From NCBI GenBank assembly GCA_050290185.1, contig JBNKHE010000003.1:160001-224000 (forward strand): a DNA stretch of 64,000 bases, written 5' to 3'. This stretch comes from Pontiella sp. GTDB lineage: Bacteria; Verrucomicrobiota; Kiritimatiellia; Kiritimatiellales; Pontiellaceae. The position numbers were made by a program. Below, one piece after another: positions 13,213 through 22,200 of the stretch (its first letter is position 1; the number at the start of each line of letters is the position of its first letter).

Positions 13213-16200
13213 TAACCGAGCCGTTCGTGTAATTATAAAATGCGGGGTCTAACCCCGCATTTTATTTTTGTACCAAAAATAAAATCGAGGCCTCAATAAT
13301 ACACATATTGCATACATATATCATGTGAATGTGTGCCGCTTTAATCGTGACATTCAGGTACGTTTTTTTTTAGAGCCGCGAACTTTATTGGCCGATATTC
13401 TGCTCATATATGCGTATGTGGGATTGCCTAGGTCTCAGGCAAGCAAGGTGGAATGCTTTAACCTGGCAGTTGGATCACGTATGGAATATCGGGGAAAAAA
13501 TCTGCCAGGCGCTGTTGATTCGTTCAACCTTTCCATTTCGTAAGGTTGTTTTGGTCGTGCTTTATCATGATCAGGTTACCCTGCGCATGGGATTAGTCCC
13601 ATTCTTGAACAGCTGATTTTGAGACTTTAAAATATGGAATGGATTGAAATAACAGGTGTGGTGGTATTCATCTCGACGGTATTCATCGTTCTGGGAATGT
13701 GGCAGCGGTCTGTCCAGCGGGCCGAGGAGGAACGTCTGGCCGAAGAAGTACGGGCCGCCGAAGAGGAAGGCGCGAACCAGGCGCTTACCCAGCACCCCCA
13801 GATCGATACGAGTCGCTGCTTAGGTTGCGGCAGTTGCGCGGCGGCTTGTCCCGAGCACGGAGTGATTGCTATCGTTGACGGCAAGGCCCGGTTAGTTCGC
13901 GCATCTCATTGCGTCGGACACGGGAGTTGCGAACAGGCCTGTCCCGTCGGAGCCTTGATGGTCGGACTGGGCGATCTCTCTTCGCGGGTGGATATCCCCG
14001 TATTGAGCGACGAGCGCGAAACGACGGTTCCAGGGGTGTTTATTGCCGGAGAACTAACCGGTATCGGTTTGATTCGCAATGCGGTCACGCAGGGGACTCA
14101 GATCACCGACACGATCGCCGGACGTCTCAAGAGGCAGGGCCCGCGATTGGGTGACGAAGGCATGGTCGATATCCTGATTGTGGGATGCGGACCCTCCGGG
14201 ATTGCGGCCACACTGCGCGCCCACGAACTGGGCCTGCGCTACATGACGATCGATCAGGACGATCTGGGCGGTACCGTCCGGAAATATCCCCGCAATAAAA
14301 TGACCCTGACACAACCGGTCGATCTGCCACTGTATGGCCGGATGAAGCGCACCCAGTATTCCAAGGAAGAGCTGATTGCACTATGGGAAAAGGTTTTCAG
14401 AAAAGAGGGGATCGAAGTGCGGACTGGTGTGAAGTTCACCGGTCTGGAACCGCGATCCGACGGTGTGCTTTCTGTGGAGACCAGCGCCGGTTCCGTACTC
14501 TGCCGGTATTGCATTCTCGCGCTGGGCCGCCGCGGTACGCCGCGCCGGTTGGGAGTCCCCGGTGAAGATTCGGAGCGGGTGCTTTACCAGCTCATCGATG
14601 CTGCGGAATACAGGCAGAAGAAGGTGCTCGTGGTGGGCGGTGGCGACAGCGCCATCGAAGCGGCCCTCGCCTTGGCCACCCAGGCCGGTAACACGGTGAC
14701 GCTTTCCTATAGGCGCAACGCGTTCTTCCGAATCAAGTCCAGAAATCGCGAAGGACTGGAAAAAGCCTCCGCGGAGGGCAAGGTCAGCGTGATCCTGAAT
14801 TCGCAAGTGCAACTGATCGACCGGGACTACGTCAAGATTGATGTCAACGACGAAGAGGGCGGCGATCCGGAAGTAAAGCGCGTCGCGTATGACTATGTAT
14901 TCGTCTTCGCCGGAGGCGAACCGCCTTATCCGTTATTGCAGAAGGTAGGAGTCTCATTCGGCGGAGAAGATAAGGCGGAGCCGGACTCGATCAAGGAGGC
15001 GAGCTAGCCATGTCCGAATCGGTCCGTACCCGCGAAAAAACCAGATTTCGAACGCCGGCGATATGGGTGGTGCAATCCCTCGTACTCGGGATCTTTGCCT
15101 GTTTCATTATTTTTCATTGGGACTATTACAGTCTGCCGCGTGCTGAACGGCCCTTTCACGCTGCGCACTCCTCTCTTCGTTCGTCCGGACTGGCCGGACT
15201 TTGGATGGGCGTCGGGGCGGCCTCCCTTTTTGTGCTGAACCTGGGCTATCTGGTACGCAAGCGCCTGATTCGTTTCTCCTGGCTGGGCCCCTTGCGCCAA
15301 TGGATGAACTTTCATGTGGTCACCGGTATTGTCGGGGGCGGTTGCGTGGCCGTGCATATGGCCATGGCCCCGTCCAGTGCCATGGGGACCATGGCCCTGA
15401 TCGCCCTGTGCATTACGGTGGTCACGGGCATTGTCGGCCGCACCATCTACATCCGTGTTCCGCGTTCCGCCGAAGGGCGGGAGCTGGAATTTAGGCAGGT
15501 GAAGGATCAGTTGGAACAATGCCGGCTGGAACTGGAGCTAACCGGCGTCCATGCCAATTGGCTGCATGGTGAAAAACCGCAGGAAGGCGTACGACACACC
15601 AGCTTGATGGGGGGATTTGCTGCCCTTATCGTGGGGGACCGCCAGCGCCGGCACGATTATCGCCAGCTCAGGAAAGAGATTCTGGGCTCGGCGAGACTGA
15701 AGGAATCTGCGGCGCATATTCTTCCGATAGCCCAAGCCTATTGCATGCATTGGCAGTGGTTTGTCCGCTACTATGAACTGCGAAACCTGATCTCCTCCTG
15801 GCGCTTTTTCCATCGCTGGCTGGCGATTCTGATGCTCTTTGTGGTGCTGGGCCATGTGGTTGTGGCGATTCGGTTCGGCGGTCTATCGCTTTTCGGGGGG
15901 AGTCATTAATGAAAGTGACCCCAAAAATGATGATGTGGGTTTTCGGACTGCTGACGATCGGCGGGCTGGCCTTGTTTCTCGCCCTGTACCAAAGTTCGCC
16001 GGGACCTCTTACTACAGCCCATGCCACTGCGGTGCCGGGCAACATGATCTGGTCGTGCAAGAAGTGCCACTCCGATGACGGAATGGAATCGGGGTGTTTG
16101 TCGTGCCACGCCGAAATCGCGAACCAACTACACGAAAAAACCGGTTTTCACACCTATCTGCGTACCCAGTCATCCGCCAGTTGCGAACAGTGCCACCCCG

Positions 16201-19200: not shown

Positions 19201-22200
19201 TGTTATTCGTGTCACCAAAGTGACTATCAGGGTGCGCAGGATCACGCGAGCCTTGGTTTTCCTCATGATTGCACGCAGTGCCATTCGACCTCGTCGTGGG
19301 GATCGGCCAGCTTCTCGCACACCGATTTTCCGCTTCGCGGAAACCACGATGTTTCGTGCACGCGGTGCCACAATACGGGCAGCACGCAGACCTTTACCTG
19401 TCTGAACAATTGCCATGGGAAGAGTTCAACAGACAGCGATCATAGTGAAGTCAGGAACTACAGCTATACATCATCGGCCTGCTACAACTGCCACCCCGAT
19501 GGAAGAGAGGATTAGCGCTGTGGAACCGGAATCCACCCCGTTGGAAATGCCTATGAATACAAGATGCTTTAGATTGAGAGGGAAGGACTGGATCGTGGCG
19601 CTCCTGCTGTCCGTTTCTGCATTGCCATGCGCCTCAAAGGCCGAGATGCAGAATGTTCCGGCGCATATCACGTACCGGATCGAGGAGGGCGTCTATGTGG
19701 ACATTGGCTCCGGCAGCGGATTGGAGCGGGGCATCAAGGGTAGCCTGCTGCTGGAGGACGGCCGTTCCTTCACCTTCGAGGTCATGCAGGCTGCAAACTC
19801 ATCCGCCCTCCTGCGGTTCGGGGAGCAGGGCGTCGATCTTGCCGCCGGCAACGAGATCCTGCGGGTCGAGCTGGTATTCGATGACGCGCAACAGAATAGT
19901 GAGGAAACCCCGGTCATCCCCCCGGCCGCCACCACCGCCGCGCCGGAAGAGCCGGAACCTTTTGTGCCGCTCCTGGAGCGCATGAACAAGATGCCGGCCT
20001 TGACGCAGAGCAAGAATGTGAGCCACGGAAATTTCGGCGTACGGCAAAGCATGCAGACCGGTACCGACAACCAGTTGGACCGGATGGTGACGAGGCTGTA
20101 CACCTCGGGCAGCATCGACCGCATTGAAGGCACCGAATGGAGCCTGAAATGGTCGGGCAGTGCGCGCTACCGCACCGGCGATGCCTACGTCGACCACCCC
20201 GACTACCAGAGCCTCCAGCCGATGATCTACAATCTGATGCTGCAGCATCCCCTGGAGGCGGGCGGCTTTGTCCGGCTTGGACGTTTTTTGCCCTACGAAC
20301 TGCCGGGGGTGGGCTATATTGATGGCGGCCAGCTTGAAGTCTCAAACGGAGGCCTCTTGCGCTTTGGCGTATTGGCGGGCTTGAAACCCGGTCGTGTGAA
20401 TCTCGAAGTAACGGCCGACGAGCCGACCGTGGCCGGCTATACCACGCTGGAGGCAGGCAAGCAGGGATCGTCCTACTATTCCGGTACGGCTGGCCTGATG
20501 GCTTCGCTCTATCAGGGAGAGGCCAATCGTTTTGCTCTGTTGTTCGATCAACGGGCCAGTCTCGGGCCGAAGCTGGATGTCATTTCGACCGCGCAAATCG
20601 ATTTTGGTGTCGCCAATACCACCAACAGCGCCACCCAGCTTTCGCGCTTTGATTTGACGGCATCGTCCCGCATTGCCCGCAATCATACGCTGCGGGCGGG
20701 GATGGATCACTGGGAACGGGCCGATACGCCGTCGGAACGCGATCTACTCACGATCGTGGACAACAGCTTGTTTGATTCGGGCTACTGGCGCTACTGGGTG
20801 GGGGCGCGCCATCGTCTGCCGCTCAAACTGAATCTCAACGAAGAAGTGGCCTACACGGTTTCCGACAACACGGATGCCGCCATGCGGTGGCGCGTGGGAT
20901 TGACGCGCACAGGGTTTTTCCAGTGGACCTCCGCCAGCATTTCGTCCACGATCTATAATCTGGAATCGCAGGGGAACAGCGGTTTCGGCGGATTGCTATC
21001 CGCCTATCTGCCGTTCTGGGACAGCCGGCTTTCGGTGCGTCCGTCCGCCAGCATGCGCTGGCTGGACCCGGACAACGGAGGCGATGGGCTTACCATGTCC
21101 TATTACTCGGTTTACCTTGATGCGCGCATAAACCGAAAGTGGCTGCTTTCCGGCGGCTTGACGCAATCCATTGGCGACGGGGCCGACGCCACATCGTTCG
21201 ATCTCGGTTTACGCTACAGCTGGTAGGCGCGGATCCATGCAAGGGGGCATCGGATTCCATAGACAGGTGCTTGTCAGAGAATGGGTGTAAATGCGGCCTG
21301 CAGGTGTGGTAAGGAATGCTATGGGGTACATCATCAGCCTGTTACAACTGTCATTCCAACGGACGGGAATAGCCCGTGGCAGACAGGCATCCCCACACAC
21401 GTCTTTGGGGCGTAAACCCGGTTCGGATAAAGCTGCTACCAGCCGCCTAGTTCTTCGGCAAGATCGACGGTGATGGTTTCCGCCATGTATTCGAATTTGG
21501 CGGATTGAAGGGCGGCGTCAAGCATGCGTTCGCGGACGGAGATCAGGTCGCGCACTTGCTCCAGCGGAACGTCGGCCAATACTTCGAGATCTTCATTAAG
21601 CTGCCTGATGACTGGGCCCGTTCGCTTTTTTTGCTCGGCAACCTGCATGTAGTAGGCGTTGGCCATGTCCAACATGACGCGCAGCCGGTCTTCAATGATT
21701 CTGCGTTGCTGGTCCTGGGCCGCAATGAACAGGGCTTGCTGATGCTGGTAGACGGCAATGTCGGGATTGCGGGTGCCCCAGGGGAGCACGATCGAGGTCG
21801 ACAGTTCCCATCCGCTGGATCCGTTGTCATAGTCTACGCGATAGGCGGGCTGGAGATACTTGAGGCGGAAGCCATCCTCCGAACGCGCCGCTTCTTCGGC
21901 CAGCTGCATGGCGCGCAAATCGATCCCGAACTGGCGGTAGTCGGAGCGTTGTTCCAAGGCGGTTTTAAGCAGGGACTTGATTTCAAGCTGCGAAGGTATA
22001 TCGATGACCGCCATCGTGGAAAGCTGTTCCAGATCCGCATCGGGTCCAACGACCATTCTGATGCGCCGCTGCGCATCCAGAAAGTTGTTCCCCAGATCGG
22101 CTTGGTCGTTTGCCAGCGCAAGGTAGGTGCTGTAGAGCCGGGCCCGGTCGCTTACGGCTAACTGGTTCAACGTCACTGCTTGGTCGGCCTTTTTCAGATA

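Follow-up and report, generated by a model that had tools for sequence, protein, structure and literature searches.

A PCC3-type porin-multihaem-cytochrome operon with a flavo-FeS gene in Pontiella sp.

Gene content of the operon

The window analyzed here is a stretch of 64,000 nucleotides from Pontiella sp. (contig JBNKHE010000003.1, positions 160,001 to 224,000). Positions 13634-21226 of its forward strand hold a single operon of five co-directional ORFs (13634-15007, 15010-15909, 15909-17645, 17614-19515, and 19415-21226). The upstream gene encodes phosphoglucose isomerase (PGI; family match E 1.4e-237). The hairpin behind it marks the left boundary of the operon, and no long ORF occurs in the roughly 370 nt that come next. 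The features are listed below.

13235..13265, + strand: terminator-like hairpin with a 14-pair stem and a T run, 3' of the phosphoglucose isomerase gene
13634..15007, + strand: P0001, 457 aa, TM tether, two-cluster ferredoxin domain, and FAD/NAD(P)H domain
15010..15909, + strand: P0002, 299 aa, inner-membrane protein with 5 TM
15909..17645, + strand: P0003, 578 aa, with 20 CxxCH motifs
17614..19515, + strand: P0004, lipoprotein cytochrome, ORF from GTG 17614, likely start at ATG 17626
19547..21226, + strand: P0005, 22-strand barrel, ORF open from 19415, likely start at 19547 or 19553

ORF calls, translations, and motif counts bear out the survey's finding of a five-gene block with these parts. 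The genes had been described as overlapping, and the ORFs do overlap, but the extended overlaps of P0004 and P0005 reflect the choice of the first upstream start. The likely true starts are M5 in P0004 and M45 or M47, preceding a signal peptide, in P0005. Pfam families had been reported missing for three of the five proteins; in a scan above the cut-off only P0002 and P0005 were without one.

P0001 and P0003 each carry one N-terminal hydrophobic segment, in agreement with the anchors assigned to them before. P0001 was matched by Pyr_redox_3 (3.9e-38) and Fer4_10 (1.3e-10), and the earlier Pfam values for this protein and for P0002 were reproduced. Its ferredoxin domain has two cluster motifs, CxxCxxCxxxCP and CxxHxxCxxxCP. 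Since the latter has a His in place of the second Cys (C-x2-H-x2-C-x3-C-P), a residue shared by at least 90% of 21 relatives, the two-cluster domain stands, but not the claim of two canonical [4Fe-4S] motifs. The two-Rossmann FAD/NAD(P)H domain has the thioredoxin-reductase/YpdA fold, and no conserved redox CxxC was found in it. The closest solved relatives of P0001 are YpdA/Bdr 7a7b (E 1.4e-40) and TrxR-type ferredoxin-NADP reductases. P0001 is proposed to be the cytoplasmic electron entry.

P0002 carries the motifs W98-x3-H102-x13-H116 on TM3, T139-G-x-x-G143 on TM4, and W264-x3-H268-x13-H282 on TM5. Between TM4 and TM5 lies a helical insert of about 115 aa on the cytoplasmic side. The 190 relatives counted before, two of them named PreT, were found again. 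H53, H102, H116, H268, and H282 are invariant in a 23-sequence alignment. The earlier claim of invariance holds for the four membrane His, which are kept down to 17-19% identity, but not for H53, which distant relatives lose. Pfam matches of P0002 itself lie under the cut-off (Ferric_reduct 0.011, DUF4405 0.032), and among the 23 relatives weak matches were assigned to Ferric_reduct in 19, DUF4405 in 18 (best 2.4e-6), and Ni_hydr_CYTB in 12. The AF2 model (pLDDT 79.0) gave a non-discriminating fold search, with a best Z of 7.8 among unrelated helical bundles, 6.0 for Dcytb, and 5.8 for FdnI. One DUF4405 protein was shown to bind haem b (bioRxiv 10.1101/2024.03.13.584918). P0002 is proposed as a dihaem b transmembrane electron carrier and corresponds to the PCC3 ‘IMP’.

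A recount of CxxCH motifs confirmed 20 in P0003 and 24 in P0004, the latter with one additional CxxxCH. In P0003, the hydrophobic segment is directly followed by a conserved SPGPLxxxHA motif; it is proposed as a periplasm-spanning multihaem cytochrome whose N-terminus is a signal anchor or cleaved. P0004, earlier called a lipoprotein, indeed has a lipobox (LVVAG|C) whose Cys is kept in its relatives. It is built largely of c7-type trihaem repeats, matches TIGR04257 in 5 stretches (46 bits versus a cut-off of 40), and is proposed as the outer cytochrome, putatively exposed at the surface.

In P0005, the signal peptide and a small beta domain are followed by a disordered linker rich in Pro, Ala, and Glu and by a 22-strand barrel, whose last residues are ..LGLRYSW. 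The outer-membrane barrel of 22 strands noted before was recovered in the AF2 model (pLDDT 77.9) and by Foldseek, which returned 329 PDB matches at E<=1e-3; the matches listed were all outer-membrane barrels apart from one S-layer complex. P0005 is proposed to form the outer-membrane sheath.

Relation to PCC3 and other electron conduits

The survey had presented the wire as new, which overstates the case, as four of its five parts are those of PCC3, a porin-cytochrome cluster predicted by He, Barco, Emerson, and Roden in 2017 (PMC5566968; further papers: PMC9900912 and bioRxiv 10.1101/2025.02.27.639646). PCC3 was described with a porin, two large multihaem cytochromes, and an inner-membrane protein of about 300 aa with 5 TM, SGXXG, and two WX3HX13H motifs, from whose His two b-haems were already predicted at that time (PMC5566968). 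P0002 has every feature given there. The gene order (membrane protein, cytochrome of about 20 haems, larger cytochrome, porin-like protein) and the haem numbers in steps of three are also alike. The membrane proteins are related with profile E of 1e-20 to 1e-29, and P0005 aligned with porin-like proteins of PCC3-like loci of a second class at an hhalign probability of 86% (profile-profile, E 4.9e-6, 311 columns). A PGxLxxxH motif is common to P0003 and the 21/24-haem cytochromes of that class, and relatives of each of the five proteins encoded by the operon occur in PCC3-like loci of a second phylum.

The operon is a new lineage of a described but so far only predicted kind of “electron wire”. 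The PCC3 papers cited above list four genes, described mostly in Proteobacteria, and no flavoprotein, whereas the operon analyzed here includes a flavo-FeS gene, which is fused or divergent in relatives and is a new part relative to those descriptions. The outer cytochrome is a lipoprotein here, the barrel is smaller (about 557 aa versus 685-853 aa), and the operon comes from a polysaccharide-degrading, Kiritimatiellales-like host.

MtrCAB of Shewanella and OmaB-OmbB-OmcB (Pcc) of Geobacter share this logic, with a barrel as sheath, a multihaem cytochrome in the periplasm, and a lipoprotein cytochrome on the outer side. They are quinol-fed through separate inner-membrane cytochromes and carry 8-12 haems rather than 20 and 24. 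Membership in the MtrCAB/Pcc families was not found, the DmsE-family model scoring 62.7 bits against a cut-off of 192.2. In NADPH oxidase and ferric reductase (FRD domain with an FNR-type dehydrogenase) and in MsrQ-Fre of E. coli, NAD(P)H donates electrons to a flavin, and these move on over two b-haems, bound by His pairs of two parallel helices, to an acceptor across the membrane. The path proposed here is the same, and short relatives of P0002 even use an FNR-type reductase. Compared with these systems, the Ferric_reduct score of P0002 stays below the cut-off (16.3 versus 28), it has 5 instead of 6 TM, the dehydrogenase is of the TrxR/YpdA type with two FeS clusters on a separate or N-terminally fused chain, and the acceptor would be a multihaem cytochrome c.

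Membrane cytochromes b also link multihaem cytochromes c to a cytoplasmic FeS protein in Tmc and Hmc of Desulfovibrio, and to the quinone pool in CbcL, CbcBA, and ImcH of Geobacter. Flow in Tmc and Hmc is inward to CCG-type FeS proteins, and Cbc and ImcH are quinol oxidases without a flavoprotein; the protein families of all of these differ from those of the operon. The DUF4405, MsrQ-like, and PepSY-like flavinylation-associated cytochromes b share the four central His, and their partners, as described by Huang et al. (bioRxiv 10.1101/2024.03.13.584918), are extracytosolic flavinylated proteins and not multihaem cytochromes with a porin. The link to P0002 consists of the 18 relatives matching DUF4405, mostly below the cut-off.

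Flavoprotein and membrane protein across genomes

Among 46 PVC-type loci, a P0001 relative occurred in 42, a P0003 relative in 44, a P0004 best hit in 39, and the barrel in 38. P0001 and P0002 form one ORF in six of these loci, and full fusions were found in 17 of 30 long database representatives scanned. By positive-inside charges, both ends of the flavoprotein-to-TM1 junction are cytoplasmic, which is consistent with the natural fusions.

In the second class, the flavoprotein adjoins the membrane protein in 15 of 19 fetched PCC3-like loci and is encoded elsewhere in the genome in the remaining four. A sample of 400 genomes of this class contained both proteins in 42, the membrane protein only in 12 (eight of them weak matches), the flavoprotein only in 4, and neither in 342. 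Of the flavoprotein matches, 36 of 50 lay within 2.5 kb of a membrane-protein match. The co-occurrence has a Fisher p of 3e-41, which overstates the association because the genomes are related and not independent. At E<=1e-80, the flavoprotein was absent from 4 of 46 second-class genomes with a strong membrane protein, one of which has a partial copy. Flavoprotein and membrane protein are co-inherited across two phyla.

All six short relatives of P0002 that were examined lie between a 7-haem cytochrome c and an FNR-type NAD(P)H-FAD-[2Fe-2S] reductase (FAD_binding_6, NAD_binding_1, Fer2), which is unrelated to P0001 and stands in its place. Together, adjacency, fusion, co-occurrence, and this replacement support a path from NAD(P)H over FAD, FeS, two b-haems, and c-haems to the barrel. 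The architecture put forward earlier, of a flavo-FeS reductase, a dihaem-b-type membrane protein, two multihaem cytochromes, and a barrel, is likewise strengthened by fusions, co-inheritance, and the FNR-type replacement. PCC3-type wires thus carry an overlooked cytoplasmic flavoprotein, which probably feeds them from NAD(P)H.

Proposed electron path and alternatives

The operon is best read, with moderate confidence, as a PVC-lineage PCC3-type porin-multihaem-cytochrome cluster with its own cytoplasmic entry module, leading from NAD(P)H to the outside. On the cytoplasmic side, where the N-terminal helix would hold P0001 at the membrane, NAD(P)H would reduce the protein's FAD. Its two FeS clusters would pass electrons to a predicted inner b-haem of P0002 (H102/H268) and from there across the membrane to an outer one (H116/H282). 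They would then reach the 20-haem P0003 in the periplasm, the 24-haem lipoprotein P0004 in or at the 22-strand barrel P0005, and an extracellular acceptor. Such outward flow would have a price, since electrons moving from NAD(P)H across two b-haems would dissipate the membrane potential. It is conjectural that the wire bypasses the quinone pool, that the flow is outward, and that it serves a fermenter as an electron dump.

The same envelope wire could also be coupled to quinones, with P0002 oxidizing menaquinol or reducing menaquinone and the flavoprotein acting as an NAD(P)H:quinone feeder via the same haems or as an accessory. The published PCC3 model, with inward flow to the quinone pool through a quinone-active cytochrome b (PMC5566968), is of this kind, and a quinone site would be compatible with the weak Ni_hydr_CYTB matches. 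The genome holds futalosine-pathway menaquinone genes (MqnA/D-type) and three Rnf/Nqr-type complexes, so a quinone route is available; other multihaem clusters are present too. This coupling is weakened, and now appears unlikely, by the fusion of the flavo-FeS domain straight to the membrane domain, which would bring the FeS centres next to the inner haem, and by the unrelated NAD(P)H reductase that, in all six short relatives examined, occupies the same position with its own FeS centre.

Rather improbable is an inward flow, in which Fe(II), Mn(II), a cathode, reduced humics, or a partner cell would supply electrons that pass through b-haems, FeS, and flavin to NAD(P)+ or a different acceptor in the cytoplasm. 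PCC3 was originally detected in Fe(II) oxidizers and proposed as an oxidation route, and Tmc and Hmc of sulfate reducers import electrons from periplasmic cytochromes c. However, FNR-type and TrxR-type reductases normally run from NAD(P)H to FeS, and the inward path would oppose the membrane potential, with NAD(P)+ far below the Fe(II) or humic couples. For Sideroxydans ES-1, lower expression of both PCC3 clusters on Fe(II) is reported (PMC8788666), consistent with a function other than the oxidation of Fe(II). Proteins from one of the two clusters mostly escaped detection, and the other cluster's proteins showed no change on Fe(II) minerals.

It is very improbable that the cytochromes store electrons in the periplasm or supply a periplasmic reductase, with the barrel serving another purpose. 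In favor of this, the short P0002 relatives have no barrel and lie beside metal-resistance genes, so the inner module can serve periplasmic tasks, and of the 41 PVC-type loci that extend far enough downstream, 3 lack the barrel. Against it, five of the eight misses among the 46 loci are contig ends, the barrel always adjoins the lipoprotein cytochrome, and it is a distant relative of the porin-like protein in PCC3-like loci.

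The operon and the published PCC3 layout

The survey's finding of five adjoining genes was confirmed, and its numbers were reproduced with four corrections. The operon encodes a flavo-FeS protein (P0001), a membrane protein with four His (P0002), two multihaem cytochromes c, the second a lipoprotein (P0003 and P0004), and an outer-membrane barrel (P0005). The operon and its upstream bound lie in the window as follows:

13235-13265: strong terminator-like hairpin, bounding the operon upstream together with the phosphoglucose isomerase gene
13634-21226 (+): five co-directional ORFs

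The downstream neighbour of the operon is a convergent gene, and promoter-like sites occurred about as often as by chance (5 against 4.4 expected). The second of two motifs taken for [4Fe-4S] in the flavoprotein is CxxHxxCxxxCP with a nearly invariant His, two and not three of the five proteins lack a Pfam family, and the long overlaps ahead of P0004 and P0005 disappear if the likely starts at 17626 and 19547/19553 are used. The fourth correction concerns the His residues of P0002 (below).

The porin-cytochrome cluster type PCC3, predicted by He et al. (PMC5566968), consists of a porin, an extracellular cytochrome (median 34 haems), a periplasmic one (median 21), and an inner-membrane protein that is conserved, spans ~300 aa with five TM helices, and carries SGXXG on TM4 plus WX3HX13H on TM3/TM5. 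Two b-haems were predicted for this membrane protein, which was modelled as quinone-active (PMC5566968). P0002 is a membrane protein of 299 aa with no family above cut-off. Its hydropathy shows clear segments at ~15-38, 60-82, 117-148, and 266-296, and the helix at 95-116 of the predicted model was taken as TM3, giving five TM helices in ~300 aa. WX3HX13H is found as W98-x3-H102-x13-H116 and W264-x3-H268-x13-H282, and SGXXG on TM4 as T139-G140-I-V-G143. G140 and G143 are invariant in the 23-sequence alignment, and Ser stands first in the motif of several relatives as well as of all 19 PCC3-like proteins from a second class, that of genome G301, labelled Gammaproteobacteria. The four membrane His are invariant in 23 relatives and 8 divergent sequences and are all kept in homologues with just 17-19% identity; H53, which the survey had also listed as invariant, is lost in the distant relatives.

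A sample of 400 second-class genomes was searched with the P0002 profile, which matched in 54. In the 19 loci that were fetched, the gene order is membrane protein, 21/24-haem cytochrome, 9-69-haem cytochrome, and a protein of 685-853 aa, the last with a signal peptide and, in most, the C-terminal end ..GYRWDF. The first cytochrome carries 21 haems in 13 loci and 24 in four, while two are cut by a contig end. This order is the published PCC3 layout, recognised by description and not by named genes.

CxxCH motifs number 20 in P0003 and 24 in P0004. P0003 corresponds to the periplasmic ~21-haem cytochrome adjoining the membrane-protein gene in PCC3; its second-class counterparts were matched at phmmer E 1e-30 to 1e-47 and have the PGxLxxxH motif in common with it. 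P0004, with its lipobox LVVAG|C, is the candidate for the extracellular cytochrome, and its second-class counterparts have ordinary signal peptides. Neither protein belongs to the MtrA/DmsE decahaem family (TIGR03508; 62.7 bits for P0003 and 48.5 for P0004 against a cut-off of 192.2), and both exceed its ten haems. In the model of P0005 (pLDDT 77.9), a small beta domain is joined by a disordered linker to 22 strands, and Foldseek matched this model to outer-membrane barrels, with 329 matches at E<=1e-3. The porin of PCC3 is represented by this barrel model and by the hhalign match of the PVC barrel family to eight second-class porin-like proteins (probability 86%, E 4.9e-6, 311 columns); none of these eight was recovered when the PVC barrel profile was used in a plain HMM search. 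P0002 has each published feature of the membrane protein. The survey's description of the wire as new is scaled back: the wire is new as a lineage and a variant of PCC3. The Verrucomicrobia porin-cytochrome cluster of He et al. 2017 mSphere (PMC5615132), whose periplasmic cytochrome is 8-haem, was not counted as the same system.

Among the relatives of P0003 and P0004 (loci L002-L047 and L064-L081), haem numbers step by three: 17, 20, 23 or 26 in most relatives of P0003, 10, 13, 16, 19 or 22 in many relatives of P0004 and, for the second class, 21 or 24, a pattern that fits growth by c7-type trihaem repeat units. In locus L006 (12542-17156), the P0004 position is taken up by haem-rich ORFs that overlap in several frames over ~4.6 kb, either one very large cytochrome split by frameshifts in the assembly or a region of collapsed repeats.

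The flavoprotein as a conserved fifth part

The 46 PVC-type loci related to the window operon come from Planctomycetota, Kiritimatiellales/Pontiella, Verrucomicrobiota, and one Elusimicrobiota. A relative of P0001 occurred in 42 of them, three of the four misses being contig ends. Relatives of P0003, best-hits of P0004, and the barrel occurred in 44, 39, and 38 loci, respectively, and five of the eight loci missing the barrel are contig ends. P0001 and P0002 form one ORF in 6 of the 46 loci. Among the 150 best database representatives, 30 long ones were scanned for fusion, and 17 carried the full fusion of Fer4, Pyr_redox_3, and membrane domain, 4 part of Pyr_redox_3, and 9 nothing.

In the second class, the flavoprotein gene adjoins the PCC3-like locus in 15 of the 19 loci, mostly divergently, and the other four genomes encode the flavoprotein elsewhere (E 1e-140 to 1e-155). 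Across the 400 genomes, 42 had both proteins, 12 the membrane protein only (8 of them weak matches), 4 the flavoprotein only, and 342 neither. The co-occurrence gave a Fisher p of 3e-41, from genomes that are related and so not independent. Of 50 flavoprotein matches, 36 were at most 2.5 kb from a membrane-protein match.

Published accounts give four genes per PCC3 (PMC5566968; CL21 preprint; Hoover et al., PMC9900912). He et al. never mention FAD, flavoprotein, ferredoxin, or pyridine nucleotide in their main text (PMC5566968), and the word "oxidoreductase" is absent from the CL21 preprint. Slit_0871 and Slit_0866, which flank one of the two ES-1 PCC3 clusters, found no mention in the literature searched, and Slit_1445 is absent from the supplement text searched; the membrane-protein genes there are Slit_0870 and Slit_1446. 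With a cytoplasmic NAD(P)H-type flavoprotein as conserved partner, the inner end of the wire is defined and the direction of flow can be tested.

Several candidates were set aside. An apparent triple fusion of flavoprotein, membrane protein, and cytochrome c (P0239) looks like frameshift read-through and was dropped, and the over-long ORFs in L007, L017, L019, and L036 start further upstream, in a different frame across the flavoprotein gene, and are not fusions. L048, in which the match is confined to the final 43 residues of P0002 and is followed by unrelated sequence, is an apparent contig-end chimera and was excluded from all counts. A variant in L039 and L040 (8967-13604) encodes a 5-haem cytochrome, a shortened membrane protein (209 aa), a 16-haem cytochrome, and the flavoprotein, with neither second large cytochrome nor barrel; L035 (3631-5285) holds its first two genes only, cut by a contig end.

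The inner-membrane end and the direction of electron flow

P0001 has a single hydrophobic helix at its N-terminus, a ferredoxin domain with two clusters, and a Pyr_redox_3 domain (E 3.9e-38). Among solved structures, its closest relatives are YpdA/Bdr and TrxR-type ferredoxin-NADP reductases. It scores 139.4 bits against the YpdA/Bdr cut-off of 339.9 (TIGR04018) and differs from YpdA/Bdr by its additional N-terminal TM helix and ferredoxin domain. Outside the FeS domain, the only Cys are C185, C290, and C293, none of them in an invariant or nearly invariant column of the 21-sequence alignment. Because of these closest relatives and the lack of a conserved redox Cys pair, P0001 is read as a putative NAD(P)H:FeS reductase. 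After its second GxGxxA, an invariant S-Y-R is followed by basic residues, which we take to be reminiscent of the NADPH site of thioredoxin reductase.

By hydropathy and charge, the N-terminus of P0002 and its 147-264 insert are assigned to the cytoplasm, so that TM3 and TM5, with two His each at a spacing of 14, would point the same way. Among 23 relatives, Ferric_reduct was matched by 19, DUF4405 (PF14358) by 18 at E<=0.1 (best 2.4e-6), and Ni_hydr_CYTB, of the quinol-oxidising, CbcL-like type of cytochrome b, by 12 (best E 0.00099), mostly below cut-off. The window protein reached 15.2 bits for DUF4405 (cut-off 26.7), and PF14358 is a precomputed label of some relatives. Haem b binding has been shown for one DUF4405 protein (bioRxiv 10.1101/2024.03.13.584918). 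Structure comparison was unhelpful: against 48,161 chains the P0002 model gave helical-bundle noise (best Z 7.8 among unrelated bundles, no chain at Z>=8), its profile found nothing meaningful among the sequences of solved structures (best E 0.61), and Atlas look-alikes were unnamed clusters. The putative dihaem b assignment of P0002 is thus based on its His pattern and on family matches that are weak yet consistent. When P0001 and P0002 were predicted as a complex with two haems and two FeS clusters, the result (ipSAE 0.01) spoke neither for nor against binding.

The system would work like the NOX/ferric reductase family without being a member. P0002 scored 16.3 bits for PF01794, where the cut-off is 28, and matched only in residues 261-287, and the dehydrogenase is a separate chain of Pyr_redox_3 and Fer4 domains in place of the fused C-terminal FNR-type FAD/NADPH domain of NOX.

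Short distant relatives of P0002 (~250 aa) were examined in six cases, four from Verrucomicrobiota and two from the second class. All six sit between an FNR-type reductase (FAD_binding_6, NAD_binding_1, and 2Fe-2S Fer2) and a 7-haem cytochrome c, and the four short relatives that were aligned keep all four membrane His. Two unrelated NAD(P)H-flavin-FeS reductases thus occupy the same position, which argues that the P0002 family takes electrons from the cytoplasm and passes them to periplasmic c-haems.

The three-gene module occurs without a barrel at L049 4866-8508, L050 5117-8531, L051 5230-8662, L052 6094-8764, L082 8090-11645, and L083 8436-12040. Genes around it code for, among others, Metal_resist-like proteins (3 loci), a heavy-metal P-type ATPase, a multicopper oxidase, glutamate dehydrogenase (2 loci), and glucose-6-phosphate dehydrogenase (1 locus). 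The module may handle metals in the periplasm, fed by NAD(P)H.

In the mechanism proposed, the membrane-tethered flavo-FeS dehydrogenase would load the dihaem b protein, from which electrons would pass through ~40 or more c-haems to the cell surface and leave the quinone pool untouched; the same inner module with the FNR-type reductase and 7-haem cytochrome would serve periplasmic metal handling. It is a serious possibility, somewhat short of probable, that the PCC3 wires of Proteobacteria and PVC are NAD(P)H-driven, NADPH-oxidase-like exporters and not quinone-coupled Fe(II) oxidases, with the FNR/7-haem version handling periplasmic metals. The NOX-like inner end suggested by the survey gained genuine comparative support, and its cofactors, direction, and quinone independence are parts that we infer.

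PCC3 has been described as functionally untested and discussed as a possible route of Fe(II) oxidation (PMC9900912; CL21 preprint), and both ES-1 PCC3 clusters were down-regulated on Fe(II) (PMC8788666). Outward flow is favoured because of this down-regulation, the usual direction of such reductases, and thermodynamics as we infer it. PCC3 showed no response to Fe(II) in the single strain tested, despite its possible role in Fe(II) oxidation. If the NOX-like inner end is right, the model of the widespread PCC3 system would be revised. If flow is outward, the wire would provide a quinone-independent path along which electrons of NAD(P)H reach minerals, humics or electrodes and would re-oxidise cofactors in fermenters such as this polysaccharide degrader. 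PCC3 genes in metagenomes would then be read differently, and a compact NADPH-to-electrode module would be at hand for engineering.

Distribution and genomic surroundings

The membrane-protein family is common, with 3141 database clusters at E<=1e-3, and the distribution of the module is patchy. In a 301-genome sample of the phylum, a full-length match occurred in the window's own genome alone, and the module was not found in any of six same-genus genomes of this sample; close copies occur in Pontiella-labelled MAGs. The window's genome is 95.5% complete and gave no match to NuoH of complex I. It encodes three Rnf/Nqr-type complexes (RnfD/NqrB-type matches), one [FeFe]-hydrogenase, and futalosine-pathway genes.

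Fifteen ORFs of the genome carry at least three CxxCH. A second concentration of multihaem ORFs lies at ~161-181 kb of its contig C8, with 19, 12, 11, 9, 6, 4, and 4 CxxCH. Outside the operon, an 881-aa ORF in the window (59210-61855, minus strand) has 6 CxxCH, a bacterial Ig (Big_7) domain, and weak matches to MtrC/MtrF-domain proteins and cytochrome c7. Just downstream of the operon, window positions 22653-31004 encode a protein of 1757 aa that combines CotH kinase, three lamin-tail domains, and a beta-helix, as well as a VTC-domain protein, a DUF4956 protein, and an HlyD-type protein. In a 784-aa ORF at 3701-6055 (plus strand), GreA/GreB domains are confined to the last ~150 residues; either its ~600 N-terminal residues match no family or its start is over-called.
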